A DNA stretch of 64,000 bases from NCBI GenBank assembly GCA_905178155.1, contig CAJINV010000002.1, forward strand, positions 3,663,838 through 3,727,837. Reading direction: 5' to 3'. Position 1 is the first letter of the stretch, and every line of letters starts with the position of its first letter. A model generated the notes under the pieces. The model was not told the DNA's origin, did no database searches, and was given only the letters and a program-made list of their open reading frames with translations. The position numbers were made by a program, and so were the translations under genes. This DNA is from Amoebophrya sp. A120 (lineage: Eukaryota > Protista > Dinoflagellata). This document shows, in pieces, positions 38,001 through 60,911 of the stretch.

Positions 38001-40113
38001 ACGACCTCTATCACCAGTGCGCCGTCGCGGATGTCAACGCGTGGCGGGTTACGCATTGCAAAAGTGTCGTACTTGTACCAATTGCGGATACGCATGACAA
38101 ATCTGCCTCCCAAGGTGAGTCAGCTTCAGCATGACAAACTTCATTTCTCATTTTGAGAGAATTTGTAATGCAATTTGTACTTAGCACGATGCTTTTGTAA
38201 AAATGCATACGAGTGCAAAGGCAACAGAACGAGCAGGACGTTCTGATCCACCCCACGTGCCGCGGACGGTACCGCGAACTTCTCCTCGCTCTGATATCCC
38301 AAGGAAAAGCGTCTCCACCCCAAAGTTGCCATGCAGATTTGCAATTACAGGACCATTTGTAATGCGCATCCATATGCTGAGGGGCATTTCCAATCGACCG
38401 TGTTCTAGCATTTGTAATTATGCTGTCATCAGGATCAGGAGAAGTAGATGTTTTTGTGATGCAGCTGTCCTTGAGAAACTGCCGTACAACACAGAGAGGA
38501 ACTTGTCATGCGTGACCCCCAAAACTTCTGAATTTGTGTAAACCAAATGATCCCCATCTTCACTGTGGGGTGGGAATGTTTTTCCACAGGATATCTGATC
38601 AGCCGCAGTTTGCAGTGCCGCGACGGGCTGCAGCGGTACTCCATCGCGACTTCTAGTGCGGACACTGCATCATTCCTCAAGAACCCTCGGGAAAGTGATA
38701 GTACGGGAAAAGACGACGGTGTCAAGCAAACCCCCGCGGTTGTGAATGAACAAGCAGAAGTGCCGGGGTCTGCCGCAGCGCCCGTTGTCTCTGCTCGCAC
38801 TGCGGAGAAAACCTTTTTCCCACACCAAAAACCCGACGTGACAAACACCTACGCTGCAGAAAAGTACACGCGTATCATGTAATTTTCAGCATTGATTTTC
38901 GGCATTAATGCCGTGCCGCCTGTGAAGTGATGTCGCATGACAAAAAAGCATCTGCCTAGATAGAAGTTGTCTCTTGTGCATCTTTAGGTTTGTAGTGCCG
39001 CGCTTTTTTTCTGGTATGGATGATGTACTTTTCCCTACCATAGGTTTTTCATGACTAAAAATTCCTTCGTCCGAGCATCCGCGAGCAACTACAACCTGAC
39101 GCCTTTATTCTAAGGAAAAACGTCCTCACCCCAGACTTGTCATGCAAATCTGCATGCCACAAAAGTTTCTCACGTGGAACCCCGTGAGAAGCATTTTCTA
39201 GGCGTGTTTTGGAATTTGTGATGCTAGAACCAGCCTGATATAAGAGATCTGTGATGCTTCTGAACTAGCCAAACAGGATGACACTGCGAGGGAAAACTTG
39301 TCATGCGAAACAAGCAAACACAAAGCTGGTTAATTAGTCTAGCAGATTCCCCATCTTGACTCCGGTGTGGGGACGTTTTTCTTCAGGATAGCCTTTGGAA
39401 GCGAACCTGTTCTACAACTACGCATTGCAAATCTAACCGATCAAAATCTAGAAATCTGTATTGCAAGAGCGCACAAGAAACTCCATTTTTGTCGTGTCAC
39501 ACTGTTGATCTGACGAGAAGATTGTGCCCAAGGAGCTTTAGCATCTTCGAGATCGAGGGCCAACTTGTGTTGCATGAGGATGAGCACTCACGCATCCAAG
39601 TGGACCAAGCTGCATGAAAAAATGATTGCTCTGTGAACGTGGTTCCACGCCACTTCCTAGAAGTAGATCTACTTCCATTTGCAATGGATGCCAACGCGTG
39701 CGATCTGATTCCATTGCCTGACCTGAACCTTTTCGCGGGCATATCAAATGCAAAAATGTCTGGGTCTGGAAGGTTGGAATTTGTGATGCTAGCTTTGGAC
39801 TCTCAAAAAATCTGTATTGCATGACCAGCAAGAGGCGTCTAGTTTGTGCTACGCGGGGAGGGCGTTTGTCATGCGGAGTAGGCATCAGGAAGGGTTCTAA
39901 AAGTCTGTTATGGTAGGGCATGCATCACACACAATCCTGAGTCATGCAAAACATGCATGACAAGGCTCAGAATCTTCCAGACCTAGACATTCTTGCATTT
40001 GATAGGGCAAGCGGTACGACAACGTGTGCTTCATTTTCAGCTTCACCAGGCTCAGCTGCGATGAGCATTTTTTTAGGCACTATAAAAGCAAGTCCTCGCG
40101 CTCGAGGAATTAA
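29001..40113 (+). CDS. Large type-II membrane glycosyltransferase-like protein split by 22 introners
   Basis: N-terminal anchor; motifs KCGVCLIGKT..LLEPLNYADLFLV, YDYLALGRLDLLWLTP, CWVPFDQGDAMGLTDWYQICSRDYAD resemble the uncharacterised GT-like YDxxxxxRxD/GxND proteins. Frame is continuous by the element+5 rule except at ~38870-39060; stop TAA 40111-40113. Confidence 0.6.
29395..29614. mobile_element. Introner family E
   Basis: E TIRs; DR catcg/taccg. Confidence 0.88.
30072..30350. mobile_element. Introner family C
   Basis: C TIRs; DR cttcc/cttcc. Confidence 0.9.
30390..30643. mobile_element. Introner family A
   Basis: A TIRs; DR cgacc/cgacc. Confidence 0.9.
30793..31052. mobile_element. 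Introner family A
   Basis: A TIRs; DR cagta/cagta. Confidence 0.9.
31944..32154. mobile_element. Introner family D
   Basis: D TIRs; DR cacga/cacga. Confidence 0.9.
32195..32722. mobile_element. Introner family A carrying a nested insertion
   Basis: A TIRs, 528 bp; DR aaaca/aaaga. Confidence 0.88.
32347..32637 (+). mobile_element. Nested foreign insertion (retroposon 3' end-like)
   Basis: ~290 bp replacing the middle of a family-A element; hairpin CTCTAACGG/CCGTTAGAG, AATAAA, short A-tail. Confidence 0.5.
33054..33270. mobile_element. Introner family D-like
   Basis: TATCG.G.GAAAAAA...TTTTTTCCCCCGATA; DR tgcag/cgcag. Confidence 0.85.
33815..33986. mobile_element. Introner family H
   Basis: TATCCCACAGAAAAAATCTGGCAGG...CCTGCCAGCTTTTTTCTCTGGGATA; DR gtgca/gtgca. 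Confidence 0.9.
34299..34562. mobile_element. Introner family A
   Basis: A TIRs (ends GTA); DR gctcg/gctcg. Confidence 0.9.
34751..34982. mobile_element. Introner family A
   Basis: A TIRs; DR gcgaa/gcgaa. Confidence 0.9.
35033..35356. mobile_element. Introner family F
   Basis: TATCAAAAGGAAAGATCCCCCCTCCCCATA...TATGGGGGGGGGGGAGATTTTTCATTTTGATA; DR acccc/acccc. Confidence 0.9.
35783..35979. mobile_element. Introner family C (short)
   Basis: C TIRs; DR gagca/gagca. Confidence 0.85.
36210..36519. mobile_element. Introner family F
   Basis: F TIRs; DR agcaa/agcaa. Confidence 0.87.
36603..36743. mobile_element. Introner family C (internally deleted)
   Basis: TATCCTGTG...CGCAGGATC; frame restored by element+5. 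Confidence 0.78.
37025..37289. mobile_element. Introner family A
   Basis: A TIRs; DR cctag/cctag; very similar to 11492. Confidence 0.92.
37393..37628. mobile_element. Introner family D
   Basis: CTGTCTCAGTCTCAA / TTGAGACTGACACAG IR; DR cttct/ctgcc. Confidence 0.85.
37713..37983. mobile_element. Introner family A
   Basis: A TIRs; DR ttacg/ttacg. Confidence 0.92.
38050..38209. mobile_element. Introner family B
   Basis: B TIRs; DR cgggt/cgagt. Confidence 0.85.
38295..38593. mobile_element. Introner family C
   Basis: C TIRs; DR tctga/tctga. Confidence 0.9.
39106..39390. mobile_element. Introner family C
   Basis: C TIRs; DR gcctt/gcctt. Confidence 0.9.
39419..39690. mobile_element. Degenerate introner (A-like)
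   Basis: TACGCATTGCAAAT...ATTTGCAATGGATG; DR acaac/ccaac. Confidence 0.75.
39742..40004. mobile_element. Introner family A
   Basis: A TIRs; DR gggca/gggca. Confidence 0.92.
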
Positions 40114-43100
40114 AAAGTGGAAGTGTGCAAGTCGCATATTTTAGACTTTTGCAAAGTGGAAATGACAGTCTGTAAACCTGACGCTTTCTAGCTGCACCAC
40201 GCAGTTTGCTCGTCGTCTTTTTTCCATGCAATGTTGCATGCAAATACAACCACCACCAGCGCTTTGCTTTTACCGTGCATAATTCTCCGGTCGGTCCCAA
40301 GTTATGAGGAAGAGCAGGAAGAAATAAATGAAAGGGAAAACGAGAAAATCAGCCAAAATGTTGACAAAGGCGAGATGGACAAAAATGAACAAATAACAAC
40401 GCATTCTGCAAACCGGTTGCTGCACGAGAAGAAAAAATATCAATCGCCAGCGGCTAAACGGAGCCGATACATCGCAGATTGTTTCTGTGACAATGGATTG
40501 ATCTGTTTGACGAGACAATATCCCACATTGAACATGCTTCTTGAATCCATGATCGAGAAAAATATCTTCCTTATGGTTAACTCCAAAGGGGCCGTGCGCT
40601 AATTCATATTCTCGAGCAATTCAAGTGAATTTCGAAAGTTTGAAGTTTTGAAATTTCAGGAGCAGTCTGGCACTGCTATATTCTGTTCCAAAACAACATT
40701 GCAAAAACGTAAATTAAATATACGAACTCCCCTGCTTCTTCCTTCCTTACCGTGGTGCCGCGAACATTTCTGCTCCGAAATTTTCTTCCCTACGATGCCG
40801 CTCGTCCGAGGGGGTGTGGGTACTTCGCGATGCAAGGCGTCACTTCAGCAAGTCGCTCATGCGCAGCCCGGCTCTGTCACTCGGTTCGCAGAAAAAAAGA
40901 AACCGAAAAGGCTGCTTTGCTCGCTCTAAGTCGGCGTCGAAAGATGGCGAGAACCGCGCACGCAGTAGGCTTCGTGGCAGCGCAACTGACCCAGAGCAGT
41001 TGTCACTTTGTTCAGGCCGTTCCAGATTTTTTTCGCCAAAACCAAACAAAGTTCGAAAACAGGAAAACTAGTTTCTAGGTTGTCGCAGTCTCTATCTTCT
41101 TGGTATTGTGATCGTGCGCCACATCTCGAAGCCCATAGTGGCTATCTGCTCGCGAGCCCTTGGCTGGCTCATGAAGTGCGAACTCTTCCAGCCGTTATCG
41201 ATTTGGCACTAGCCTTACGATGCCATAACATCACTCGAAGAGATTTGATATGAAGAGCGTAGTAGCCATTGAGCCGATGACGTCGCGTTACATCTAGAAG
41301 ACGAGGCAAAACAACCACGGGCCGAACCACATGGAGGATATCCAGCATGCGGGTGGGCCACTCGTTTAGGGTATAAACGAATATCTAGGCGGTGCTTCTC
41401 GATAAAACGAAACTTATAGCGGGCCACTGCTATTGGCAAAATATACCGGCTTGTCGTAAATGATTCCTTTCCTAACTCCCTCTCTTAGTGCCTGGAACGA
41501 TTCCTCTCGACGTGAAGTCGGAATCGGGCCACAATATTAAAGCGCTAGAGCTAAGTCCTGGGCCCCGCGACAGAAAATCTGGAGCGTGGACAGAGAAATC
41601 GAAACACGAAAACAAGGTAAATAAAACAGGCGAAAAAATGAATAAAAGTTCGAAGGCTTGGACACCCAAATCCCTTTGTGACAGGTAGCATTGGAGGCGC
41701 CGCCCGACACGAAGCAAAAACAGGGCCCAACTGGAAAATTGTTTTGGCGAGATTTTGTTTTGGTTTTATCCGGGGGGCTATAAATCGCTAAAATTGATCA
41801 AAACTGTACCTACGGCCCCAGCTATAGGTTGTAACTAACTTCACCATACCTGTAGTCGACCCACTTCGGAGGCTTCTCTTCGTGTGAATACAAGCAGACC
41901 GGCACTGTCTACTTGCAGGAGCTCCGACGAGCATTGCGTCATCAAATCAGTTCATAGCCTCTAAAAGTCCTCTTTTGTTTTGTCGAATGAGCTAGGTTGC
42001 TCTAAAGTGGGTGAATCCAGATGAAAGAAGGGCGGGTCATAGGGTAGAGAGGTATAAATATAAACTCTCGAAGTTCTAGTTCAAGTGCCAGGGTTGCCAC
42101 GTATCAACTTCGTCTCTTGCTGTTCAGAAATTTGACCGCAATCGGTCTGATCACATCAGCGAGGAAACAAATAGATACGGGCCCCCCCTGAAGAATAAGG
42201 AGTTCGTCGGGAAACAGTCCACAACAACACCCTGAGAAAGAGGCGCTGCGGACGAAAATATCTAGATCAAAACGCTCGAAACAGGGCAGCCTGGTAAAAG
42301 ACCACGGTGGGAATCTGTAATGACGACGATTTAGACATGGCTTGTAACTGTAAACGACAGCAGGGATAGCTGCTGGCACAGAGGGAGCAAAACTGGGAGT
42401 GCCGCTGCGTTTCGCATCTCAAATAAACAAAACAAGAGAAAGCTGGGCGAGCCTTTGGCCGCACCGCCGCACCATGACATACTATATGACTAACTTGCTG
42501 TCGGGTAAAGTTCTAGTCTTAGATAGAAGCTCCGGAAATTTTTGTCAAGCATCTATACACAAAACCAGCAGAGGAGACCGGGTCTGTGGTCGCTCGAATG
42601 AAAATAGACAGGAGCTGTAGAAGGGCAATGGTAGTCGTGCTGACGAAGAAAAGCCAGCAACGTCAGTTCCGGTCTGAATAGAGGAGATCTACCCTATGCT
42701 GTTTGATATTCATTGCAATTTTTGTCGCTTATATTGTCTGAAGCATAAATTATGTAAATACTTCTTTCTTAGTACTGGTTTAAGGTCTTGATCGGAAAGG
42801 AAGAAAACCGAACCACTTCTGCTTCCGCCCGGGCCAGCGCTCGAGGATGCTCGACCACGCCGGCGGAAAGAAGTTGCACAAAAGAGGGATAGTTGCTGAT
42901 TGCTGGGCCTGCTGAATGCAGACGCAACCACATCCATAAGCTTCGAGTTCTATCGGAGAAAGAGGTAAAGATTGCAAACAGAAGTTCTAGACGCACATTA
43001 TATTAAAAGTTTTGGCTACTGACGCAGAGCATCGAGCTGCTGCTGTCGCAGTTTGAGTCTTTCCATCGGTTGAAAGTGTTGCGTTCGTTGCTAGATATCA

Positions 43101-43217
43101 AGATTGTAAATTACTAGTGTTGCGTTTTTTGTATAATCTGATAGAAACAGGTCAACCCGATTCCATTTTGGCTCTCAGACCAAACAAAATTTTTAATCAC
43201 GATTTCAACCACCCCAC

Positions 43218-45772
43218 CTAGAAGGCCGCGCCCTTCTTCAATCCCTTCGGCTGGCCGAAGTTCGCACCAGCGTTGTTCTGCGCGGCCGGGTTCCGCAGGG
43301 TAGCCTGCTGATGGGCCGCGGTGTACAAGTCCGCGTTCTCGCGCTGGCAGTCGCGCATCCACACGCACTCCGGATTCAACTTCTGCACCTCCAGACCGTC
43401 GAGGATGAAGATCCGCTTCTTCAACTTCCACTCCTTGCGGAAGTTCTCGATCTGCGAGAGTATGCTATGCAAAAATTCTACACACTGCACCAAACTGCAG
43501 CGCGCATGACAAGTTAGCTACTTTCGAAATTCCCGTGTGGAGATGCGTTTTGCATTTTCTTTTGCTGTAGTTTGTGTGCTTGTGTGTAGGATCTTGCAAA
43601 ACATAGCGACCGTAGCATTGGCGCTGGTTTTCAAATTCGTGAGCTTCTGTTTGATCTGGTCCATCTCGGTGGAGAGGATCTTGATCTGGTACTTCTCGAC
43701 GCAGGACCCGAGATGCAGCATGGCGCCGTGGTGACCCTGCTCTAAAACCTTCTGCGCGTTCGTAGCCGCAGTACACAGGTCGTTCAACTGGGATTCATAT
43801 GCGTTGCAAATGCGTCGCACTTTACATAAAATGCATGACAAATGCCCCCCAAGAAAAAACGAAATGCAAATTTGTCATGCAGATTCAATCAAGGAGAAGC
43901 AGGCTGCTCATGCTTGGGCAACATTTACTAAGAGTAAGAGGGCGACAAATTTGCAATGCGTATCTCGGTCGGGTTGGTGACGCAGGTCAAGATCGTCTTC
44001 GTGTGGGCGCCGATGTAGCCCCGGGAAACAGCCTTCGCAGCCTTGACGAAACGCAAAGCCTGCTGATCCACCGGCCCGTTCACGTGACCCAGCAAAGTGC
44101 TGCACTTCGCGACGTAGGACTCCCACTCGATCTGCATCCCGTCGTTGATTTCCAGCGACAGCTGTTTTTCCAGACCAGCAGCTTTCAGGTTCGGAAAGAT
44201 GTTGTTGAACTCCAGGTTGAGGATGTGGCATTTCACATGCCCGCGGTCACCGTTGATCATCCGCATGACGGTAGCACACTCCGCATCGATTTGGTTCATC
44301 GCCTGGTACAACGGGTCCGACAGGTAGGGCCGCAACCGGGTGATCCGGGCCCGCCGGTCGGCCATGGAGCACAAGGTCAACGCCTTCTCATCCGTGGAAA
44401 CCGCCCGGACAATCTCGGACACCTTGTACGCAAACCGCTTCGACTCGGCCCGCTCCGCTGCGGAGGGCGCGGGCTGCTGGTTGTTCGCCACTTTGCGGAG
44501 CAGGTTGATGTGGGACGCTCGGTCCTCCACGGTTGCTTTCTTGACGGCAAAGGGACTCAACTTCATCAAGAGGCGGTAGACTACAGATTCTTTGTCCTTC
44601 GTCGGGTCGCCCAGGTACTGCAACACCTCGCGCTTCAAATCCGCGCCGGAGTAGGTTGTCATCTTTTCGTATACGGTGTCGAGCTTGTCCTGGAGGTTGG
44701 GGAAGTTCAACAACCTGTGTGTTGGTTTTGGGTTTGTTTTTCAATCACTGCGAAAGAGAAGGCAAGATATTCTATGTTGATCTGAAGCTGCATGACAAAT
44801 TCGAACATCGAAAAAACAACAGCGACAAAAATTCGCATCTATCACAAGTTCCCGAAATCGCAAGACCGCGTCGATTCATGCAAGACATTGTAAATATTAT
44901 ACCACGTCAAGATGTCATCCAAGGTCTCAAACTCGGGCTTCGGTTCGAAATTGATAACCACCGTCTTCGCGAGTTTCTTCACCTCCTCCTCGGCCATTTC
45001 TTTGTCGTAGTTGACGATCTCCTCCTCGCTCTTCACCGTGCCATCCGTGTTGTAGGAACGCTTGGACCGGCAAGCCTCTCTGTATGGACGCACAAATTGC
45101 CTCTCGACTGAAAAAAAAACGCCAATTTTATCGGCCAGATGCATTACAAGTTCTGCCATGTTCGTTCGCTTCCTTTTGGGACTTGCATAGCTGCCCACTC
45201 ATGCCACACTCACCTTTTTTTTTTGGTCGAGAGGAATTAATGCTTCTGTTTGTGCATAGGACGATGGACTTGAAGGTCAACATGTGCAGCGCAGACTTGT
45301 CGTCGTCGCTAAACGGGAAATCGGGCCACTCGTCCTCCAGCAACTTGCTCATCGCGCACAACGACGGCCAGGACAGCGACTTGTCGATCAGTTCGTCCCC
45401 ACGGCCCAACACCAGCTTCAAAGTGTTGGCATCCCACGACGCCACATGCTCCGGGCGGGTTTCCTTCAGCGCGGTGTGAAATTTTTTCAGGTTCTCCGCC
45501 TCGATCAGCTTGTTCGCTTTCCCCTGGGCGTTGGCGTCATGGACCTGACCGGAGGAGACTGCCGCGACCGCAGCGCGGAGCGGGGCAGAGTCGAGGGAGT
45601 TGTTCAGATAATCGCGACGGATGTTGCTGATGTTGTACAGCTTCTTACGCACGTAGGCCCGGGCCTCGCGCTTAACATCGGTGTCATCGATCGGGAGGCC
45701 GCAGTCGTCCTTGAACTTGTTCGTCGTGGGGGTAGTGTCCTGCTTCTGCAGCTTCTTTTTCGTGGGCCCCAT
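43218..45772 (-). CDS. Hypothetical helical protein, 5 exons
   Basis: ATG at 45772. Exons joined in frame across introners 45083-45258, 43798-43962, 43461-43605 and GT-AG intron 44715-44902. Confidence 0.75.
43461..43605. mobile_element. Introner (B-like, aged)
   Basis: TATGCTATGCAAAAATTCTACACAC / GTGTGTAGGATCTTGCAAAACATA; frame restored. Confidence 0.8.
43798..43962. mobile_element. Introner (B-like, aged)
   Basis: TATGCGTTGCAAAT / ATTTGCAATGCGTA; frame restored. Confidence 0.8.
44715..44902 (-). other. Canonical GT-AG intron
   Basis: GTATAA...CACAG; in-frame join. Confidence 0.7.
45083..45258. mobile_element. Introner (aged, unassigned)
   Basis: IR CCTCTCGAC..AAAAAAAA / TTTTTTTT..GTCGAGAGG; frame restored. 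Confidence 0.75.
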
Positions 45773-47420
45773 GATGTTTGGTAGCACACTGCAACACAAA
45801 CAAACTGTTCGTGCGGATCAGGTGGCTGCGGTGAAGTTGCTCGTCGCGAATGCGTTCCGTATTCACGTTTGGGCTATTGCGTGCAACAACCTGCGGTCTT
45901 GGTCTTCTCTTCAGTTGTGTACAACAGAGGAGCAGGGAGGTTGCTCACTCGTCGTGCTTGTGTTGAGGTGTTGGCTAGCGTACACCTACGTCCCGAAAAA
46001 AAAACTGCAGTGTTGTGTAGTTGGAATCTGTGCAGATGAAAGGATGGATGCCTTCCACTCGAGGTTTTTTCCCCCTTCAGTTTTGTCTAGCCGAGCGACA
46101 ACAAGGTGCTAACACAGGTCAAAATATTCTTTGGTCGAGGACTACAGTTCTCAGATAGAAGGGTGGGGGGCTGACGAGCGAGACTTTATCTGCTGCTTTG
46201 CTGTTTTGCATTTGCTGTCACCATTTCTTCTGAAGACAAACATCGATCATGATTACAGTGCCCCTCCCTCTCGAAATTCAGCTGGAACCTTCAAAAAAAC
46301 TGCGCTGCGTTTTCACATCTCACAAACAACTACACGACGCGACTGCGACTGCGCACTTCCGGGCAGGTCGTTGCGAAAGATGCTGTTCAAAATACTGTTA
46401 ACAAAATTCGAAAAAACACAGATAGGACGCGCTCCAAATGCAAATGAATCCAAAACGAGGCGGCTATCACTCACACACTACAAGTAGCTGTTGCCCACGT
46501 CTAGGGCGCAAAAAAAAAATCCGACAAGGGAACCACAATAGGGGGCGACACAGGGAAGCCCCCTATTCCCGTCTGGAGTATCCCTCTGGCCCGTGACCTC
46601 TACCGAGGGAAGGGAGGGCGCCTGAGAATATGCTGGCAAAAAAAATAAATGTAGGCAAAAAACGCTCTGTCTCCGCCCGCTAATGAAAAAACGAAACAAC
46701 TCTTACAAGATTGGAAATTGGGGCCGCTGCTGAGGACAAGCAACAAAATAAAATGGGCCACACGGTGGTAACACACAGACACACCGAAAAAGGGCCCGCT
46801 ACCCTCGCACAGCTACGACGGGTGAAGGCGATCACCCTCCTCACACCGCCATGAAGCTGCCCAACCGGGGCGGGCAAGCAGGGCAACAGGGCGGTCGGAA
46901 AAAATTCGCGCCACCAAGAGCGGACACAGCGGGGCCATGGACCAGTGCCCGACCCGAAAAGCCGACGCGTCCCGCCCCCCAACGGCCCTGCAGAACGGCC
47001 CGGCACACTGCCCACGAAAGAGGCAACACGCTCGAAGGGCAGTCGGGCCGGGTTCATCGTGTGTTCGGTCTCTCTTTGCAGGACCAGCGGGCAGCGGGGT
47101 TCCCGGCAAATGGTTAGGGGAAAGGAACAAAATCGCGCGCGCGCAGCGCGCGCGATTTTTTTTTTTTCCATAGCGGAAAGCGCGCGCCGCATGGCGCGAT
47201 TTTTTATTTTCAAACCAGAGGCGCGACCGCTCTGTCTGCCCCCGCCCTGTAAAGAGAAAGGCCGGCGGAGACAAGCCAACCTTGGCGGCCCAGGTAGGTA
47301 GCGCGCCCGCTTGCCCGGGCTGGGCAAAATCGCAGCGGCAAAAAAACATCGCGCGGGCCGCAGCGACGACCCGCGGATTCCCAGCCCAAATCATAGACTT
47401 CTGACGGCAATCGCGAATTT

Positions 47421-47586
47421 CTAGCGGCGATCAAGCAATTCTAGCGGCGATCAAGCAATTCTAGCGGCAATCAAGCAATTCTAGCGGCAATCAAGGATTT
47501 CTAGCGGCAATCAAGATATTCCAGCGGAAATCAAGACATCTGAAAGTCGGTCATAGGTCGGTCATAAATCGGTCAGAATTCGGTCT
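47421..47586. repeat. Tandem 20-bp repeat (CTAGCGGCRATCAAGCAATT x~6) followed by ~11-bp TCGGTCA repeats x4
   Basis: Directly visible, with divergence increasing rightwards. Confidence 0.9.
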
Positions 47587-48092
47587 CTATCTTAGTAATC
47601 AAAACATGACCGATTTTTTTGGGGTCTGTGATTTTTTTTGATTGAAGTCGGAAACCAGAATGGAAGGTTTTTTTTAGTCTTAGAAAATCATAAGGAGTCC
47701 TGGATAGAAGCTTCGCCCGATGGAGCCGACGTCCCATCGACGAAAAAAAATTTTCGTCGCCGCCGCTGGCGCGGCGGTGCCACTAATAGCCGCTGGGTCT
47801 GCAACTAGAGGCCCGCTCCTTAGGCGTATGCAAAGCAAACTACCACTACAGGCGGCGGAGCCGTGTCTGTCTTGCTTGCAGTCGTGAAACAGGTATGCAT
47901 TGACTTTCAAGCAGAGAAAGACATGAGTCCGGACTAAAAAAACTCAAAGACCGGTATACAGCCGGCCAGCAAAGAAAAACACACTACATCGCCAGCTATC
48001 AGGTGGGAGAGGACACCAAGACTTCTGTCCTCGGTGGGGACGTTCATTGCAAGATCGGCCGTTGCTGGCCCATAGTGGCGAATCAGGGATCG

Positions 48093-51000
48093 CTACCATA
48101 TCGAGACGCACAAATACCGGAACTCATCCTCCGGGACTTCACAGTGCCGCCGTAACTCGGTGGTCTTTTCGTCGTCCAGTTCGTGTCCACACATCTCCGC
48201 TGCAATCTGCAGAACCTTCGCCACCATTCTTTCATAGTCCGCCCGTATCTTATTCATCATGGCGTCGTCCGCTCGGTGCCGCCGGTAAAAGTGATATCGT
48301 TTCGAGTGCTTCAGCAGCCATGCCTGCATCCATGCCCACGCGGTGAGCAACATGGTGCACCAGTGCCGGTCAGCGGTGTCGCCCTCGCTGTAGGCCAGGC
48401 GGTGGACGCCGCTACTGACGGCCGAGAAGCTCCGAAAAATTTTGTGCTCCGCAATCACCTTGTACTCCTGTTTCGTTTTGCCGAGGGCGGAGCAGGTAAG
48501 TGATTGGCCCAAGTGCGCCCGCTTCGTGTGCAACGACGTCCCATCCTGGATCTTCCACGAGCCATCAGGCAGGTGTGCCTGCGACCAGTCGCTAACTTCC
48601 TCCGTCACCGCGCGTCGCATGCGGTTGAGGTGCTTGGCTTGTGCGTCAGAGAGAACAAGGTATGAGGATCCAGAAGATTTGGTCCCGGCTGAAACGGCGC
48701 CGTCCCCCCTGCTCTGGGCATGGCTGCCCCCGTTGCTCGCCGACGAAGCTGATTGCATGGCTGTGGTTTGAAAAACCTGCGTGTGCCGAGCGGCCGTTTT
48801 TTTCCCAGAAGCTATGCACTGCAAAACTGTCGCACTGGCACAGCCCGCATATAAAGTTTAAATTATTTTTTCCAGCACTGCAGACGGAACTTGCCATGCA
48901 GGTTGTTTGACATGATGAAAAAAACTGCAAATCTGTCATGCACAACAAGACCTCGCGGTTGCTCGAGTGCGATAATTCTTCACAGGATATCCGTTGCGCC
49001 TACACTTTTACCTGCTGTTTCCGAAGCGGCTGCCACTTTCCGCTTTTTCACCTCCTGTTCCAGCGGCCCCGCACCAAGCGCGCTGCTGCCCCGGAGGTTT
49101 GATGATGAAGAAGACGCTGCAGCTGACGACGCGGACGGATTTGGGGCGGACTTCACGTGGGCCGCAATACGCATACCGCTTACACCTAGTGGTAGATGCG
49201 CCTTCATTGCAGAATCTGTGCTGTTGTCGTCTTCGGCTTTGCGCGGGAGGGTGGGGTGGCCCGCCTTTCTGCTGACGGTCTCCAGAGTCAGGCGGTCCAG
49301 GGGATGCAGGGTCTCGTCCGGCCGTTCAATTGTTGTCTGCACAGGCTCTGGCAGCCCGGCCAGGTCTTCGTCTCGCGTCAGTGCGGTGGACGAAGCCAGC
49401 CACCGCGATTTCGTTCCATCCCGCTTTACGCCAAAAACCGAATACTGCGACCCGGTATAGTTCTCGCCAAAATCCAGCGCGGAGAAGAAGTAGCGGCCTG
49501 CCGGGCCCTCGCTAGCAGGAACGAGGCCGCCGGCCCCATCCTCTAATACCCGCATGGCCACGAACTTCTTCGGGCGGCACAAGACCCAGAACACGACCAT
49601 TCGCGCCACGTCCCCGTTTGCAAACTCAAATACCGCGAGCAGGTGCGTGCAGTCCTTCATCCGTGCCTTCGCTACCTCTACATCGAAGGCAGCCCCTAAA
49701 TGCTCCTCGACGCCAGCAAGAGCATCCGGCGCCAGGCTGCCGTCCTCCGCATCCGCCAAAGCCTCTTCAAGCCCGATCTCACCTAACTCGCCCCGCGCGG
49801 CAAAGCTTTCGTGTATCGTGGTGCCCCGTGCAAGCGTGCAGACCTCCCTGACAACTTCCTGCGGCTCGACCCGCCACATGTCGACCGTGCCCAGCGTGAA
49901 TTGCTGCTGCTGGGGAACGTGCAATCTCGCCCGCTCCGCTTTCTGCCTGTCCCGCCAGGTTTGGCTTCGTGCCCAGTTCGATGCTATCAAACCCCGAATC
50001 CCGTCGTAATATTCCATCTCCGCTAGCAACTCCTGTTTGCGTTGGTGGCGCTCGTCAGCGTGCTTGGTGTACTCCTCCTGAAGCCGGGCCTGCCGCTCCT
50101 CAAACTCAAGCTTTGCCGCCACGTTAAACTCCTCCGCTGCCTGGACATAGTTCTCCCATGCTTCTGACCCCAAGATGTCCTCCGTGGCGTTCTTATTTGC
50201 GTCGCCGATACTCATCCCGGGAGCACCTGCGAAGCCGGTCATGAGATCCGCCCGCGCAAACTCCTCCGGAATTTTGCGCCTGCAAGTTTCGTCCCGCCAA
50301 TTCTGTTCCTCGAAGGTGTCAATCTCGGCGAGGGCGTCGTGCCTCGCACTAACCTGTTTCGACAGAACACGGCTGACATTTTTCGCGTCGATTACTACTA
50401 TTCCGGAGGGAGCATTCTTGTTCTGGGATCTTTGCAGAGTTGCGTGCCGGCGTTCTATCAGGAGGGTGTTGCGCGGAATTTGTTTGGCAAGCGCACAAAC
50501 TTCGCGAGCGAAGTGCTCCGCGCCTGGGAAGGGGAGACCGTTGCTTGGTTGTTCTGCCTGCGGGCGGAAGTACTGCTTGCAGATTTTCTGTATCTGGAGA
50601 AGGGTGGCCGACGCCGGGTTTCCACTCTCCAAAAGAATCTCCTCCCGACAAAACCGCTCCAAGAAGTCCCGCTGCAGGCCTTCGTCGGTTTGCTCAAAGT
50701 CCCGCATCCAGTCGAGGTGCTTGTGATACGGGTTCGGCGTATGAACTCGCTAACTGATCAGCGACAGGTCCAATTTGTAATGCGTATCTGAGTCTTTGTT
50801 GTCTTTTTCCCTCATGCCAGAATTGCAGAAAAAAACAGTTCAAAAGTGCTCAGCAGGCCATGCTAGAAATGCCACAGTGCTCCTGTACACAGTGGCGAAC
50901 TTCTGCAAAATGAATCATGACACAGGTAGGCGCGGATACCAGAAATACCTGGCGTCATCAATGATTGAAGGGGGCACTGGGGCCTGTCTCCCTGTTCCTT

Positions 51001-52893
51001 TTGCACTGTCTGTGCCACTTGAACAAGGCATGAGGGGATCATAGCAAAACCAGAAGCATCAAATATACGCATGACAAATTGGACCGGAAGATGATGAGTG
51101 AGCGTCTTGCGCTTTTGATAACGCACTACCCGGCCGTAGAACGCTGCTGCGATAATTTCCAGCCCGTTTAGTGCTGTGGATGCGTGTTTTTTCACCACCT
51201 TCGCGTCCACCGGTCCAAGAAGCCCCAACATCCCCCGCAGGCTTTCCTCACGAAGAAGGGCCCGAACCTCCTCTACACCGTGGTAAAACTGTTCCTGTGC
51301 AGCTGAATCGCCGCCGGCTGTGTTCTCATGCTTCGCCACGTGCCCCTCGTACCGCTCGACGGGGCGCGTCAGGAGACTGATGATCAGCATGGTGCAGTCA
51401 ACGCGGATTTTGCTCCACTCGTTCCCGGCAAGATGAAGTCGCGTTTTTTTGTCGAGGAGACCAAGAATATCGGCCACTACTACTCGCGCCAAATCATCAC
51501 CGCACCGTATCCATCTGCTGAAGGAGATAGGGCGGATGCCCCGGGTCAATGACTGCAACATCCCCAATGCTGCTGACTTTGCTTTTTCTGCCGACCCGTA
51601 CTCCTCGATCTCCTGGTCGGTCAAGACGAAGGTAAGGCTGGTCTTGCCTTTTGATTTGGAGATGCTGAGCTTGTGCAGGAGGTTGGACGCGTCCTTGTCT
51701 TTCTGTGTTGCAGATTTCGCCGACCGAACTCGCTCAGCTCCATAGGGCGTCCCCGCTAAATAATCGCGAAAGGCTTTCGTTTGGGCGTTCATCTTCGGAC
51801 CTGCAGTGGCGGAATCCCTCAGGAGGGAATGACGGTCAGGGCCGGTGGGGACAAAAACTCTCTTTGGTAGATCCAACATCATCCCCGCCTGCAGTGACAT
51901 TTGCTGTTTTCCCACTACTTTGCAAACCCCGTAGCACTTCTTCTCCCACTTGGTCGGGTCGATGTCATTCTCCAAGAGGTAGGCGGTCGCACCCTCCTCC
52001 AGCGCAGTGCCGGCTTCGTGTTCTTCGCAGTGGCTGGAGATCGTTACCACATGTGTGCCGGGGCGGTTAAAGATCTCGTCTTTTTCTTCTGAAACTACTG
52101 CGCCGACCGCTTTGTGCGTGAGAATCATGTCCGGCCCGCGGTCGGAGCTCGTGTTGATGACCAACAACGCTGGCAGGGTGCTTGCGGCCCCAACTACCGC
52201 CTTGACGTCGCGCATCACGACGTCCGCGTTCTTCTGCGACGGAATGCGCTGGTCGCACAGAAGATGTTCAAAACCACTCTCAACAGCTGCTGCTTCGTTC
52301 ATCCGAAGGGCCGTTTTGCTTGGTTGTAGGATAGTTGAAGTCGGAGTTGTGACCTGGTGACTACTCTCGCCGGCGTTCCACGTCAGGGCCATATCCGTCA
52401 CCATCCACTTCGCCGCCCCGTCGGTTATCGTCTGGCGCCCACCACCAAAAACGTCCAGAGACAGCTTCGTTCCGCACGGGGTGGCGTCGCTCATGTGCGA
52501 GAGCAGTGCGGATCTTGTTCCCGGGTCCTCCAATATTTTTCCGGCCAGAAGCTCGCCAGCCTCCTTCGCTAGCAGTGCTGCCTTATCAAAATGCACGTCT
52601 TTTCGCGGTTCTCCATTCATGAACGGCTCCAACGTCCGGCCGAGAATTTCATCGCGAAGAACATCGGCTTTTTCCGTCCCATCACCGAGCACAAGACCGG
52701 ACGCTAAAAGGCGGTCCGCGTTGGTACCGCTGCCTTCCGTGGAAGCGCCCGCTCCTGCAGAGCCTGGAGCTCGGTCAACCCAACCCGTCAAAACGTTTCG
52801 CTCCTCTCCGTAGCCACTCGTCGCCGAATCTGCTGTGGCCAAGAGGAATGGCGCTGCGCCTCCCGCCGTGGTGGGTTCTGCCCGGCTTCGTGA
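48093..52893 (-). CDS. DDE transposase-like protein (RNase H fold, CxxH/hAT-like motifs), >=1400 aa; 5' exons probably extend to ~53600
   Basis: ORFs 50863-52905, 48980-50707 and 48093-48824 join in frame after removing introners 50740-51120 and 48813-48989. Ordered motifs: HMSDATP (D ~52487), INTSSDRGPDM (D ~52142), SHCEEH (CxxH ~52018-52029), ISFSRW (~51511), NTLLIERRHA (E ~50454). Confidence 0.65.
48813..48989. mobile_element. Introner family B inside transposase-like gene
   Basis: TATGCACTGCAAAACTGTCGCACT / AGTGCGATAATTCTTCACAGGATA; frame restored. Confidence 0.8.
50740..51120. mobile_element. Introner (aged) inside transposase-like gene
   Basis: IR core GGTCCAATTTGT(A/C)ATGCGTAT at both ends; frame restored. 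Confidence 0.75.
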
Positions 52894-53106
52894 TATGGAA
52901 TGCAAAACGACTTCACGTCGGAGCAGAGGGAATTTTCGACATGCCCAGCAGTATCGCTATTTTCCTACTTTCATCATAAATTCCTATGAGAAACCACAAA
53001 CAATGACGCGCGGTCCTTGCAACACCAGGCTCGGGAGCTCGCGATGAAGATTCAAAACTCCTCATCACGACGCGAGACCGAGGCCGACCTCGTCGGCTGC
53101 ATAATA
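52894..53106. mobile_element. Degenerate introner at 5' part of transposase-like gene
   Basis: TATGGAATGCA..CGAC..GTCGG / CCGAC..GTCG..TGCATAATA; upstream frame unresolved. Confidence 0.55.
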
Positions 53107-55440
53107 CAGACTTTTACCAAGCCGGCGGGCGTGGGCGACAACACGCCTCCCCCTCATTACTGTAGTTCAAACCGAGAGTGAAAATAGCCCAGGACATGTC
53201 GACGTCATGCCCCCCCTGCTCCGAGCGAAAAAACACACATACACATATCCCGCTTGCTATGCTCCGCTGCGAGGCTCCGATCTTTGTGCTCCGCGAAGTT
53301 CTGGCCCTCACGAGAATCCGTAATCTTCGCATCATGCAGGTCATCAAACGCGCAGTAGTTTCCACTCGCTTCCGCAAGGTAGGCGTCTAGTAAATCCATA
53401 ATGCAGGCGGAGGTCGGTGGCCGAGCCGCTTCTGCTTGTAGTTGCTGCAGAAGTCCGGGGGAGCAGTTGCTGGCTGCTCGGTAAGTGGATGTTGTTGCGG
53501 GTGTGGTGTTGTACTGTAGGCACTTCTTGCTTGCTTCGTCTGCTAGCTCCAGACAAAGGTCGGCGTCAGAAGCTACGGCATGAGCAGTTGTTGTATGCTG
53601 CCCCAACCCAAACCGGTCCCCCAAAAAAAAATTTCATCTACTCGCCAATCTCCTGCGACTACTTGGCGATCGGGAATGCGAAGCCTGAGTCTGTCCTTTT
53701 TTTTCGATTTGTCTTGCAGGTTTGTAAAGTAAAGAGGTCAACATCATTCGCTTGCTCTGTGCAATGCGACGCCTGATTTTTTTTTGATTATCATTATATT
53801 TGGTTAGAGATCAAGTTCAATTTTGCTGATCATATAGCGCACTCTGTGCTGCGAGGGACGATCAAATTTGCACTAGCATTATCGTCGTCGAGTCTGCGAG
53901 GCTCGTCATCACGTTTTGATGTAGCATTTCGAATCACTTTGTCGAGACCGATATCGAATGGAATTTCTCGCATTACTACGAAGTGGCAGATTTTTTCGCT
54001 CAAAAACTCTGAGGACGAGGAGGTGCGAGCGTGTGTCTTCGGAGATGAATCAACCACAGACTAGTCGCTGTCTCTCTAAGATCCGAAGAAAAACCGCGAC
54101 TCGCTGAACTACGGGCCAGCCCCTACAAGATTTTTGCTGATCCACACTACAAATCGCGCTGGAAGATACGGGGCTTCTCATCCGAAGATCAAGCCCCTCA
54201 TTACCCTATGCCCCACAAAAATACCTAGCTTCGGAGCTCGACGCGCGCATGGGAAGAAAAGCATGAGAGAGAGAATCGACTGCCTACAACACTGGATTCC
54301 GGGCCTACCGCCGGTAAAAGACGAAAAGATAGGATCTGAGAGCGCGCGCCTGATCTGGAAAGGACTGCCTAAAACGACGTCACATAGGCCCTAGCTAGTA
54401 TGGAAGAGTAGCATTCCACTCGGGAGAGCCATTTACCAAGACTTCGGCTCGATGACGCGCAACGAAAAGAAAAAATTGCTCGCGTCAAACTAAATTAAGC
54501 TCTTGCCTCCTCATCCGAAAAAAATGAAAATACTGAACTTTTGAATTTGGTTTGAATTGCTTTAGAATTCTATTTAGCGCCGGGTGCTTCTGCGTTAACT
54601 TATGGCTAATAATCTCATGAAATCGAAAGAATCTTCACCCAAAATCTTTCATCGATTTGAAGATTTGAATAAGAATATTTCAATCTGAGGATTCTCTCTC
54701 TTTCTTTTCCATGTCTGCAGTTGATCATGGACAACATGAGAATGCTAAAACCTAGGAAATTGAAGATAAAGATTTGGATCGAATGCAGGAATAAGTTCTT
54801 CTAAAAAAAAGGTATTTTCCTTAAAAGTTTGAATTGAGAAAAAAAAATTTGAATTGATTCTCTATCTTATTTTCATAATCCAATAAATTTCTATTATTTA
54901 ATTGAAATATGAAGTCATTCAATGATTGTTGATACATTCATGAAATTATACATTGAAATTCCCATGGATTCTTTTTTCTTATGTTGATGTTCTCATAAAA
55001 ATTGATTCAGATTCTAATTTTTTGTGAATTATCCTCGAGTCTGTTCTTCGATATTTCGATATTCTCGAAAAAAAAATATATGGGAATATGTCTGTGTGTG
55101 TCACATGTGTCATATTTCATGTGTCTTGAATATATCATGGATACATTTATTTGATGGAAAATAAATAAAATCAAATCGAGAAAGAAAAGAACAAGATTCA
55201 TTTTCAGGGTCTTGAAAATTTGATGATATACCTGAAAGGAAAAAAAGAATTCTTTTTTTTTCAATTAATATCTTGTTGCATGATTTGAATCCATACATGA
55301 AGATATAGAGAAAAATTTCATATCAATGGACCTGTATATCGATCTTTCTTATCTTGAAAAATAGAGATTCTCTCGTTGTAATATGTGATCCGAACCGAAT
55401 TTTCGATAGAAAACATTTCAAGAAAAATTTGTTATTTATT

Positions 55441-56285
55441 ATTTTCTTTCTTTCTTTCTCTCCATGTCCGGGCATGGCATCAACTACAAATTCCGTTGCA
55501 ATCCCTTTTTATTATTTTCTTCGATGACGATCAAACTCAATTTGATTTTCTATTCGAATTATCTTTCTTTCTTTCTTTCCTTCCATGCCCGGGCATGGTT
55601 TCAAATGTTCAAGGCCCTAAAAGTTCCGTTGCAATCCCATTTTTTTCGCTCTAGTGATCTTCCCTGTCAGAACCAACTCAAACTGAAAAGCTTAATAAAC
55701 AACTACTTATGAGAAATAACAACGAGAAGATCAAAATCTATTTATCTGCTCGTGGTCAACAAGTCGTCTTTCTTCAATTCGATAAATCAAATACAACAAC
55801 AACAGTTTCTGAGTAAAAAATAGATCCGTCGATCGTAGTTCTTCTTTCAAGATTACTTTTTATCCGACACACCATTTCATTATTTGAGTTTCATCTTTAT
55901 CTTTTCAAATGATGAAATTTAGGATGTGTGTGGGGGAACAATCTTTTGTGCTTCACAGCTTTCCCCCAGACTCTTCCCTGCGCCGCGCCAGGTTCCGTTT
56001 GGTAGTGGCCCGCTAGCGACGGAGGGTGCGGGCCGACGGTAGTAGCGTCGGATTCTTATCTTTGCAAATGAAAATCTCGGACCGGATCTATGACAAATTT
56101 ATTTGAATCTGATTCAAATCATATGCAACAAGAAAGATGTGAGAGGACCACATATACCTACCAACATGATGGACAAACAAATAGATTGAAAAAAAAAAGG
56201 AAGAAATCTTCATCCTCTTCCACTTTCTTTCTTTCTTTCCATGCCCGGGCATGGCCGGCGTCAAAAAATTCCAGGCCCTCCAAGA
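55441..56285. repeat. Dispersed repeat: (TTTC)n + palindrome CCATGCCCGGGCATGG (3 copies)
   Basis: Copies at 55462-55477 (1 mismatch), 55583-55598 and 56239-56254. Confidence 0.85.
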
Positions 56286-57109
56286 TCCATCCTCTTCCAC
56301 TTCCTCTCATGATTTGAACGAATCAAATAGGAATCATCATCTGACAATTTATTATGGAATTTCATGACCAGGAGGACAATTTCGGATCAGAAAATCAATC
56401 ATACCGTGCCGAGATTATCATAAAGAAAGAAAAAAAGGATTAGCTTGATTCGGTGCTGGAGGGATATGGTTGATTTTAGAAGATGTGGAAAAAAAAGAAA
56501 TGTGTCGGCATCGTGGTCTTCTTGAATAGCGATCAGTCGGGCCGTGAGCTATTCCTCGCCCGTTTGTTTTTCGTCGCTCGTTTGCGATTGGATGCAGTAT
56601 GTGAAAAGTTGCAAGGCCAGACTTCTTTTCTAATCATTTCCTTTGATGTCTTTTTCGATTTTTTTCCTCCGAGGAAGATAGTAAGTAGGTAAGTACTTTA
56701 CTTTTCTCAGGCGTTGTTGCCACAGTCATGCTTTCATTTTTTCATGTTGGTGTTCAAAAAAACCGCATGCTCCCCTGCCTCCCGTCCTTGTTTGGCAGTA
56801 TCATGCTCGTGCTCTTCCCGTCCTTGTTTCCTTGGGAAACGATCATCAGGACGATGAAAAGTACCGGAACAAAAGATCGCATTGTTCGTAGTGGATGTGG
56901 AACCGGTTTTGATAAGTCGACGCCCATCTCCTTCTCCGGGGCCGGGAAATCCCGTACCTATTGTTGTTTATTCTGGGTCGCGCAACATCGAAATTGCGTT
57001 CGAATTGACGCTACCGCGCTCGTTCCTGTAATTATTTGTTGGTCTTGGTTTGCTAGGCAAGACACGCAACATGGGCACGATTTGCTTGTTCCGCATCCGT
57101 TGTGAGCTT

Positions 57110-59150
57110 TTATTCTTGTTCCGCATCCGTGTTCGTGACGAGTTCTTTTTCTTGAGACCGATCATGATCATCATGAAGAGAAGAGGGTCCTCGGGTCATG
57201 TGGTGGAGATTCGCGGGGATGTGCAAGCCCCCTGCGCCGTGCCATCTCCGGGGGAGGTTTTGGAACCTCTCCTCCGCAGCTTCGAATTCCTGCACAGCTT
57301 TGGACTTGTGGTTGCCGTGTGCCGCTGCTGGGGCCGCATCTTTATTGTCCAGCTTCTTGCCCACCTCGCAGATGTAGTCGCTTAATCCTGTCGTCTGACG
57401 GGTCAATCCAGAGAATGTGCCCGCATGGATGTTTTGCTGTTTGTTTGCTGTGTGGCTCCCGTGCAGAGTGTTCAGCTTTGTTTTCAGCCCCTGGTTCGTT
57501 GGATCGCCGAGTGGTGGATCTTCGGTGTACGAAAGTGGACAACCCCTCCCTCCCGCATACGCACTGCATCTGTAGAAACGGGAGCAGCTTAAACTGAAAA
57601 AATGCTGCAGCTTTTGTATGACAAAGTCTTCAAACCGCAACTGCGTTTACAGTTACGGCCCCTGGAACTTGTCACGCGAACACTAGAAAATAGCAAAGAC
57701 TGACTTTGGCACTTTTATTTGCGAGAGGCATCAGAGGGAAGGGGGGCTTTCCACCATCATATGTTGAGGGCGTCATACTTGATGTGGAAGGCGTACTCGT
57801 CGTCATGGCAGTAGCAAATGAAGGCCTCCGCTTTGTTCGTCTTGGACTTTTTTTGTTTCCGTTTGACCCAGTTACTGTTGAAAGGATTTTTCTGCCCTGA
57901 TTCCAACTGCCGCTTGAAGCAGATGTGGTTCCACCTCCAGTCGAGTTTGCCCGTCTTCGCTCGTGTGCGGATGTTCTCTTCGATCGTCACGACTTTCAGT
58001 GGTTTTTGGGAGTGTTCATCAAATTCAAATTCTTTGCAGCAAATCAATAGGGCTGTTTCCATATGCTCCAAACGCTTCTTGTGTTTTTCCCTGGTGCCAT
58101 GAGCGCTGCATCACAGTAAAAAACGCACTACCTGTACCACAAAGACGCAAACCCGAACTCGTGGCCTGTGCATACACGTCAGGTGGCGGTCTGATAAAAG
58201 AAGCATGCCTGGCCCTCGTATATGTTACAATGTCAAATCCAAAAAATAGAAGTAGAAGTGATCAAAGAAGCATGCCTAGCACATCTACAAATACTACAAC
58301 TGGAACTTCGCAAAGCCATTTTATCGGTGGGGCATCAGAGAACAGGGACAGGCTGGCCGCACTTTGACGCCAGGTCACTGCGTACTCATTCAACATGCAT
58401 AACCTTCGTTCGCGGCGAACGAAGGTTATGCATCCGCTATGGTAAAAATAATGGCGTGCTGTGTTTGGATAGTGCTTCCACCTGCAAGAGAGCATGGGGC
58501 GACGGCGAAAACAGCTGGTCCACCGTCCCGCCCGTCAGAAAGTACTCCTCCAGGTCCTCCAGTTCTTCCGCTTCGAGGTGGTCCGCGAGTCCTTCCTTCG
58601 CCTCATTTCGGTGCTGGTGGGACACTTCCAGATCGCGCATCTTGTTCAGCATGGTGATGTTGAACGGCCGGAGCGCCATACTCCGCTGGATCTTTTTCTG
58701 CAGAAACATCGACGGCCGCATCGTGTCCTCCTGTCCAATGATGTCTCCAGAAAACGCCACTTCGTCCGACATCACCAGTTCTTCCTCGTGCTGCGAACCC
58801 GACTCCTTCTTGTTAGCCACCTTGGTACTACCCGCGGTGAGGTAGACGAACGTTGGGCCGGTGATCCAGGTTATCGCTGCCGAAACACGTCCATGGTTCT
58901 TGGGTAACCAAACATAGCCCGCAGCGAAGCCCGCGGGAGACGTGTTGGCGACCAGCGAGGGGAGCAGAAGTCGCCACATGGCCACGCTTCTTAGTCTCGA
59001 TGGTTCTGGCCGTGGGGTTTGAGGCAGTCGGTACTTCCCAGCGCTGTGCTGGACGCGGCGGATTGGTGCGGTGTCCACGTCTGGGCGGTGGAGACAGGGG
59101 GCCGAAGCCCCGACGGATGAGTCTTGATAGCGTGAGACGTGTCCCTTCAA
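57110..59150 (-). CDS. Hypothetical multi-exon gene (boundaries approximate)
   Basis: Coding-like ORF segments 58482-58850, 57772-58100 and 57110-57522; the last two join in frame across introner 57528-57771; possible GT donor at ~58481. Confidence 0.45.
57528..57771. mobile_element. Introner (F-like, aged)
   Basis: CCCCTCCCTC / GAGGGAAGGGGGG IR; frame restored. Confidence 0.65.
58395..58433. repeat. Perfect 39-bp palindrome
   Basis: ATGCATAACCTTCGTTCGC-G-GCGAACGAAGGTTATGCAT. Confidence 0.9.
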
Positions 59151-60911
59151 TTTGAAGTGTTTGATGTCGGTGTGCGGATTCTTGGAATCCTGTTCTTGAT
59201 CTTGAAAATAAACTTGGTGCTAGAGCAGCAAGGGACCACTCCGTCAGTTTCCTATAGCGTAGTAGATTGCGGAAAACTTTCGACTCGGAACGGTAAGCTT
59301 GGAGCGAATGAAAGCACAACTACACCAGGTAACTGTAATCAAAAGAGCTATACCTCTCTCCATATATCTGGGTGCTAAGAAGAACTACTCTGTAAGTGAC
59401 CACACGCTGCGCTCGCTCGTAAAAATAGGTACTAGAAGCTACACTCTTCGTTGGCTACCACGCTGCTTCATTCTCACTGAAGCTAAAAGCTTTGCCTCAT
59501 TCCGCTCCGGAAATAGTGACACTCATCTTTGACTCTACAATTCTGTTCCTTTGTCACTCTCACCAACCTACGCTCATACGCTAAAACAGGTGCACTTGAT
59601 GATCTACGTGCGTGAAGAGGACACAGCTGCAGCAATTCTTTGAGGATGTCAATGCTCAAACAAAACCACAGCACTTTACTCTGCAAGTGCAATGCATGGG
59701 AGTACAGCTCCTACTACTTACAACAAGAACCGAGTTTGGCAAGACGAGACTGACGGTGCTTTCTGTGGAGGACCGATGATGCCTTATCTGGACAGAGCGA
59801 GGCGCAGAGCCAAATCAAGCAGCAATAAACTGCTGCCATTTGTCGTGACAAGATACCTGAAGCAATCTGCAGTGCCTGGTATGGATGTCTCGCAAGAAAC
59901 AACTTCTTTCTGTGGTTATTCTTTTTTCAATCCAAAGTAGTTTTTGTCGTCCGAAACAGTCTTGTTGAAACGTTTGCTTTGATGATATACTCTGCCAGAT
60001 TTCGTGGTCTTCTTCTTCTTTTTTGTTCCACATCTAACGACCACGACGAGACACACCTCCTTTATTTCGAAGTGGTGCTATTAAATCTGACACGATAATG
60101 AAAATGGAAAAAATGGTTTGCTTATTTGAAAGTCTATTTGAATGATTGAAATTGTAGCTTGAAAAGTCTTGAAAGTCGTAAATTTACACGTTATTGTGGA
60201 TTGTGAAGTTTCGTATTTTTCCTCCGCCTCTTCCGTTCTCGAAATAGTAGTTTTATATCCGATGGCGCACTAGACCTCAAGCGGTTCCTCGAAAATTCTC
60301 ACCCGCCACAGATTCTTTGTTATAGCCGATTGTAGCAGCAGCAGTTTTAGAAAATACAAGGTGAAAGATATATCAGAATAAATCACAGTTGCAGTTAGAA
60401 ACAAAAATAGCAGATCCCAAGTGTAACATAATGAGCAGTAATGTAGAAAATAATAAGATGGAAAAGAAAAAGGCAGGTGAAACAAATTCTCGGGTCTCAC
60501 AACTTATCTAGCGGAGCAAATTAATGTTTCATCGGATTCTAAAATCGGATTCTAAAAACTCTTACAAAGAAGATTATTGTAATTCGAGGCGTGGTTGTCA
60601 ACACGCACGAGTCGTTTTGTCACCACTACCGCGCCTGCTTCTCTGACGCGGTTTGGAAAAGAAAAAATCTATCAGCAGTAACAAATTTCCCGCGCGCGAA
60701 CAACCGAAAGGTTGTTGTTGTTGCGCATGACAAAACTCGCCTCCTATCCTACTCAGCACCACAACAAGTGCGCTCCAAGTTGGCGAAACAATTATTTGTC
60801 ATGCATTTTGTACAACGCGATCTTGTTTTTGTGCGGGGAAAGGGAATTTGCTCTTTGCATAAAACCGTTGTAAGAAGTACACGGTTGGTGCACAGCAAGT
60901 CAAAGTTTCCC

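Follow-up and report, generated by a model that had tools for sequence, protein, structure and literature searches.

DDE transposases of the C/DxxH type include those of hAT, P, MuDR, and Kolobok, as well as Dada. In hAT elements, such as Hermes, Kat1, and members of hAT5, hAT6, and the fungal hAT7, the conserved residues run in the order D, D, CxxH, W, E with a long stretch before the E, and the elements carry terminal inverted repeats (TIRs) and a target-site duplication (TSD) that is usually 8 bp. Lineages with duplications of 5, 6, and 7 bp are also known (PMC12730594; this paper and the others given by accession are cited for the excerpts consulted). The dinoflagellate Amoebophrya sp. A120 carries introners, which in this strain are diverse TIR elements (PMC12130899). 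Farhat and colleagues (2021; PMC7789003) reported two putative transposases in strain A25 and none in A120, and on that absence they ruled out a general transposase-driven mobilization of introners. Here, we describe a transposase gene hidden by introners in a 64,000-nucleotide stretch of the A120 genome (contig CAJINV010000002.1, positions 3,663,838 to 3,727,837 of the forward strand; this whole stretch is called the window). The gene is real, and the locus undercuts the published claim that A120 has no transposase. It probably encodes the DDE/CxxH (hAT-like) transposase for a cut-and-paste element of 14 kb at 40577-54598, whose inverted ends are imperfect and whose flanking 7-bp duplication is perfect, and the gene would be expressed only once the introners have been spliced out.

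The window is rich in short TAT...ATA elements with 5-bp flanking repeats. In a curated list of 48, which is biased to young copies, the flanking 5-mers match at five of five positions in 35, at four in nine, at three in four, and at fewer than three in none. One RNA-type contig over 37.7-40.3 kb has eight skips, four of them on listed introners, and in all four the unit removed is the element plus 5 nt. This unit and the TAT...ATA form agree with the Amoebophrya introners of PMC7789003. When three inserts of this kind are removed from the minus strand, each with 5 nt more, the remaining frame has 1,537 codons and is stop-free in all six cut registers. A Met at 53399 aligns with the start of a homolog from Amoebophrya AT5.2 (P0003) and gives a protein of 1,459 aa. 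Residue numbers below are those of the 1,537-codon frame. The parts of the gene are as follows.

53249..53399, minus strand: transposase exon 1, from the Met; begins MDLLDAYLAEA, which resembles the start of P0003
52894..53247: aged introner 1, 354 nt; flanks agree at 0/5
51122..52889, minus strand: transposase exon 2, with D (52488), D (52143), CxxH (52029, 52020), and RW (W at 51513)
50740..51120: aged introner 2, 381 nt; has two octamer boxes and inner arms of 40 nt with 83% complementarity; flanks agree at 2/5
48991..50735, minus strand: transposase exon 3, with the candidate catalytic E in IERRHA (codon at 50455)
48813..48989: aged introner 3, 177 nt, TAT...ATA; flanks agree at 1/5; ends like those of the TATCCTGTG...TTTTGCAGTGCATA family
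48093..48808, minus strand: transposase exon 4 and stop; C-terminal domain, conserved in AT5.2

The preliminary description of this locus, made from the letters alone, had joined three minus-strand open reading frames into a protein of at least 1400 aa. The in-frame joining and the length hold, but the gene is made of four open reading frames and three inserts. All five motifs that it named (SDATP, SSDRGPD, HCEEH, FSRW, and IERRHA) are found in the order given, and the catalytic E does lie on a different open reading frame from both Ds. The inserts were rightly called aged, as none of their flanks approaches the full agreement seen in 35 of the 48 curated introners. At the middle junction, the spliced protein aligns without gaps to all three AT5.2 proteins found (GRVVR-NP-YHKH versus GRV[IV][RC]-SV-FRKH). 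The outer two junctions fall in poorly conserved linkers, where the support consists of the frame and the TAT/ATA ends. Introner 3 could also end at 48798 without breaking the frame, but this end lacks the ATA and was set aside. In a neutral simulation of the 4.4-kb frame at 5% substitution, the frame stayed open in 0 of 300 runs, so it is either young or selected.

Protein homolog searches gave a total of three hits (P0001, P0002, and P0003), every one an AT5.2 gene model in EukProt. They are collinear with the spliced protein and 65-79% alike in the core. P0003 is full-length (1,508 aa), with 42% identity over 1,408 aligned residues, and it keeps all seven residues that had been named before any homolog was known: D263, D378, C416, H419, R587, W588, and E812. 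The chance of such conservation is about 1%, taken as the product of the core conservation rates by residue type. The second D and CxxH lie in a stretch that is missing from P0001 and downstream of which P0002 begins; RW and E are kept in both, and SRW is invariant in all four proteins. The model of P0001 (AT5.2 g6092) also omits part of the C-terminal domain; both gaps would reflect either mis-predicted introns or a deletion in this copy. Paralogs in the A120 genome are visible only as contig fragments. For example, a 164-nt contig from a run of this strain matches 51493-51543, around FSRW, with seven differences. Its loose ends, translated by hand, are identical at 12 of 17 residues and differ mostly by silent changes, suggesting a paralog that has diverged. 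With the three AT5.2 proteins, this fragment makes the family multi-copy. Metagenome and viral scans yielded a single locus (L001), which was rejected because it is a 34-residue match with a stop and rests on the search pattern itself.

The preliminary description had found no TIRs. They exist, at a distance of 13 kb from the first codon on one side (7.5 kb past the stop) and 1.2 kb on the other. The element that they enclose spans 14,022 bp and has the ends TTAAC...GTTAA:

40570..40576, plus strand: left TSD CTTATGG, 7 bp; the inner TTATG is an alternative 5-bp reading
40577..40652, plus strand: left imperfect TIR, starting TTAAC; 53 of 74 aligned bases agree with the right end
54524..54598, minus strand: right imperfect TIR, TTAAC reading inward; a related end elsewhere stops matching at 54598
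54599..54605, plus strand: right TSD CTTATGG

The inverted match between 40576-40640 and 54599-54536 (72% over 65 nt) ranks first among 1,818 windows, with a score of 38 versus 26 for the next unrelated match. The terminal pattern, which was derived from the two ends themselves, occurs exactly twice and in none of 100 shuffles. A scan of all nearby end pairs places the perfect repeat CTTATGG at exactly symmetric positions, and 7 bp is the longest exact repeat over the scanned registers. Among random position pairs, such a repeat arises with a probability of 0.0002 in a single register and of about 0.002 over 14 registers. Ends of this kind are not detected by a TIR and TSD scan that requires eight exact terminal bases. 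Readings of the ends as TAT...ATA at 40563/54611 or 40572/54602 were dropped, as neither has a matching duplication.

The C at the start of the repeat and the G at its end allow the sequence to be read equally as a 5-bp repeat, TTATG, beside GTTAAC ends. We consider the 5-bp reading unlikely. The related end, on another contig, agrees up to 54598 and then has G instead of C, which places the terminus before the C, and the 7-bp reading needs the smaller coincidence. The bases past the element end are CTTATGGC here and GATTTGGC on the related contig, which may hint at a target preference T.TGGC, at two sites only. The flanks of the element (54610-56400 and 40300-40570) are AT-rich, with 33-41% GC. 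On the right, GAAA repeats come after about four copies of a ATGCCCGG(G)CATGGA palindrome, which may together be an older repeat hit by the insertion.

The resemblance to hAT lies in the motif order, the long stretch before the E, and an element with TIRs. The protein has the two Ds, CxxH, and E of C/DxxH-type DDE transposases (D263, D378, C416/H419, E812) at the level of motifs, and W588 may correspond to the conserved W319 of Hermes, judging from its order. The spacings are 115 residues from D to D, 38 from D to C, 169 from H to W, and 224 from W to E. In Kat1 they are 67, 25, 171 (H405, W576), and 319 (PMC4763223); H-to-W is thus close, while D-to-D differs. In both ESM Atlas searches, the neighbors that have a family are hAT/DUF659/ZBED1 clusters, with 10 of 10 and 9 of 10 in the same family or clan. 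The TIRs of about 75 bp and the repeat of 7 bp (or 5 bp), seen in one copy, lie within the range of hAT. The hAT7 lineage offers a precedent for a 7-bp TSD, and its elements can carry a second gene (PMC12730594). The locus differs from known hAT elements in its 1,459-aa protein, its TTAAC ends, its size of 14 kb, the non-canonical introners that split its gene, and the lack of a detectable hAT profile, BED finger, or C-terminal dimerization domain. Pfam saw neither of these two domains in P0003 or the window pieces, although divergence may hide them. Searches of PDB sequences, NCBIfam, PHROGs, and plasmids gave nothing relevant. By motif order and context, the protein resembles a hAT-type transposase, a likeness that falls short of established membership in hAT. 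The claim of a CxxH-type DDE transposase visible only after introner removal stands at the level of motifs, with the seven residues kept in P0003 and the gene lying inside a TIR/TSD element.

Other families fit less well. Dada has a C/DxxH DDE transposase of about 1,400 aa and a 6-7-bp TSD and occurs in the alveolate Perkinsus. However, Dada elements have no TIRs and insert in snRNA or tRNA genes (PMC3706591), whereas the element described here has inverted ends; we found neither a tRNA gene anywhere in the window nor a credible match to Rfam on either side of the element. MuDR and Muta1 share CxxH, W, and DDE, long TIRs, and internal repeats, but their TSD is 8-10 bp, and W-to-E is 18 in Muta1 (PMC5225508). 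Kolobok has a TTAA TSD and RR..YY termini (PMC9587614); taking TTAA as the TSD here would give the termini CT and CG and leave the outer 7-bp repeat to chance. The three inserts of the gene are Amoebophrya introners of the kind described in PMC7789003 and PMC12130899, with TAT...ATA ends and removal as element plus 5 nt. The 14-kb host element differs from them in its ends and likely in the length of its TSD.

Several observations weigh against a hAT-like transposon whose transposase is expressed after splicing. No RNA contig spans any of the three junctions of the gene, so its splicing is inferred. The sole RNA-type piece on the gene is 150 nt long, lies on exon 2, crosses no junction, and could be DNA. 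The two TIRs are only 72% alike, and the TSD length comes from one full element. TT...AA termini are uncommon in hAT elements. Among the DNA-run contigs, a close second copy of the coding region was not found at 80% likeness, and no recent amplification was seen. Pfam gave no relevant match at E up to 10. The hAT clusters in the ESM Atlas score 0.78-0.86, all below 0.9, a range that shuffled proteins often reach, and the top rows are unnamed clusters. AlphaFold models of exon 2 alone and of the P0003 core (five-row alignment) reached pLDDT values of 37 and 43 and give no evidence of a fold; Foldseek and VIA-align returned only generic helical matches, which are uninformative.

The ends, the repeat, the open spliced frame, and the conserved residues are observed features of the locus, and from them we infer end binding, cutting, and a 7-nt stagger. 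Removal of the three inserts by the host's introner splicing would allow the transposase to be expressed. The spliced protein would then bind the TTAAC ends and excise the element, with cleavage by D, D, and E, perhaps aided by CxxH and W as in Hermes. Reinsertion would occur with a 7-nt stagger. The element contains six introners, which probably rode inside it through earlier jumps and were tolerated because they are spliced out, and the frame would be kept open by selection on transposition rather than on the host. The flanks of the six introners agree at 0, 2, 1, 1, 2, and 3 of 5 positions, a level close to chance, whereas the repeat of the element itself is perfect. The introners thus probably predate this insertion and moved with the element.

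Besides the transposase gene, the element contains the following:

43218..45772, minus strand: second gene, about 630 aa; its frames stay open after element+5 removal
47119..47169: near-central palindrome, rich in GC, with 6,567 bp to the left end and 7,454 bp to the right
47405..47585: tandem arrays with 20-nt units (about 6.6 copies) and 11-nt units (3.8 copies)

The second gene is broken by three aged TAT...ATA-type inserts (45083-45258, 43798-43962, and 43461-43605) and one likely GT-AG intron near 44866-44715. The pieces of it that were tried gave no convincing match in Pfam, PHROGs, NCBIfam, or PDB. The palindrome is the second-best in the window, and its region folds at z -4.4. Subtracting the three transposase inserts centers it within 40 bp, but this was a post hoc observation that fails if the inserts of the second gene are also subtracted, and we do not rely on it. 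DNA-run contigs share the palindrome (47121-47166), the arrays (47486-47584), a portion of the right end, and a stretch that stops at 47918. Together with the lack of a coding-region match at 80%, this makes the family look low-copy and diverged. Outside the element, the best palindrome of the window (58395-58433) is perfect over 39 nt, with 19-bp arms and a 1-nt spacer, and sits in an insert that breaks coding-like sequence. For 37207-37289 and 39337-39390, raw RNA runs, apparently from a different strain, contain unspliced reads of related introner copies that lie at other loci. In the three raw RNA runs, mapping is confined to introner repeats at less than 95% likeness and is uninformative on expression. 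The introner octamer is sparse at 40000-60000, with 0-3 per 4 kb versus up to 27 per 4 kb elsewhere.

The preliminary description proposed the enzyme family as a candidate mobilizer of introners, and it named paralogs flanked by TIRs and TSDs unrelated to introners as evidence against that link. Such flanks are what the element has: TTAAC ends and a 7-bp repeat, as opposed to the TAT ends and 5-bp repeat of introners, and the proposal is left unsupported. It can be kept if the true ends are GTTAAC, the duplication is TTATG, and a subterminal box is read over the terminal bases. An Amoebophrya-only transposase family would then be the missing engine of the introner invasion, with 5-bp duplications, a subterminal GCA-T/A-x-ACA-like box common to its own ends and many unrelated introner families, and expression dependent on introner splicing. 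If true, a feedback loop would exist between a transposon and the introns made by it. We think this unlikely, and that it keeps any weight is owed to the 5-bp reading, which suits the window sequence just as well as the 7-bp one and gives the TSD length seen in introners; 5-bp TSDs are also known from some hAT lineages (PMC12730594). Each element end contains GCAATTCAA, the best octamer-profile match of its arm, 52-54 nt from the outer TAT, and the excerpts of PMC7789003 name no mobilizer. However, the scores of these boxes (5.6 and 7.0) fall within the upper tail given by 82 background windows and are lower than those of most true boxes, and the related end has G, not C, after GTTAA. All 96 introner ends compared start with TAT and strongly prefer G9 and A11-13, whereas the best of five candidate registers of the element ends agrees with them at 7 of 11 terminal bases. 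The ends thus fail the Repbase rule of at most one mismatch in the 11 terminal bases (PMC4455052) and share neither TSD length nor terminal bases with introners as an autonomous partner should. Moreover, AT5 has three paralogs, yet canonical splicing or mostly canonical introns are reported for it in the part of PMC12005148 consulted; PMC6482013 offers no details on splice sites. As the ends of the element differ from those of introners, the enzyme probably mobilizes the 14-kb element itself and not the introners.

The preliminary description also allowed that this copy may be domesticated or immobile. A domesticated, immobile transposase under host selection, with the ends as relics, is improbable in our view. 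The single close copy (read depth is flat at 42 over the gene), the decayed flanks of the internal introners, ends of such limited likeness, and conservation with AT5.2 over the whole length, C-terminal domain included, would all fit it. However, inverted ends and a perfect symmetric repeat enclose the 14-kb element, and in an insertion of the same age as the six internal introners this repeat should no longer be perfect. A transposon family is consistent with the several diverged paralogs in each genome and with the presence, on other contigs, of sequences related to the end and the middle of the element. The neutral simulation indicates that the frame was under selection while the introner flanks decayed, and selection on transposition explains this without domestication. 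The element is likely an intact, low-copy transposon rather than a domesticated gene. That the protein is mere cargo of a non-autonomous element, with its motifs arising by chance, is very unlikely: no transposase profile or structure was matched, but the ordered D, D, CxxH, RW, and E are all conserved, both ESM Atlas searches (counted as one source of evidence) lead to hAT clusters, and a low-confidence model predicts beta-beta-beta-alpha-beta-beta and then a long helical stretch before the E.

Our literature search found no paper describing the 14-kb element, but it did not extend to two sources that may bear on this point, the entries in Repbase and Roy et al. 2023 (Curr Biol). In the supplementary table of PMC12130899, no Amoebophrya family is classed as hAT at the 60 of 63 "hAT" places covered, and the analysis took in 3 of the 118 Amoebophrya rows. 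The locus shows how transposase genes can evade searches, through extreme divergence combined with non-canonical introns between catalytic residues. A concrete enzyme with defined ends and a target duplication is now testable, and it can serve as a query for the true mobilizer in the group of proteins related to it. The locus further suggests that old introners made by one transposon can be carried by another, autonomous DNA transposon that depends on their being spliced out.

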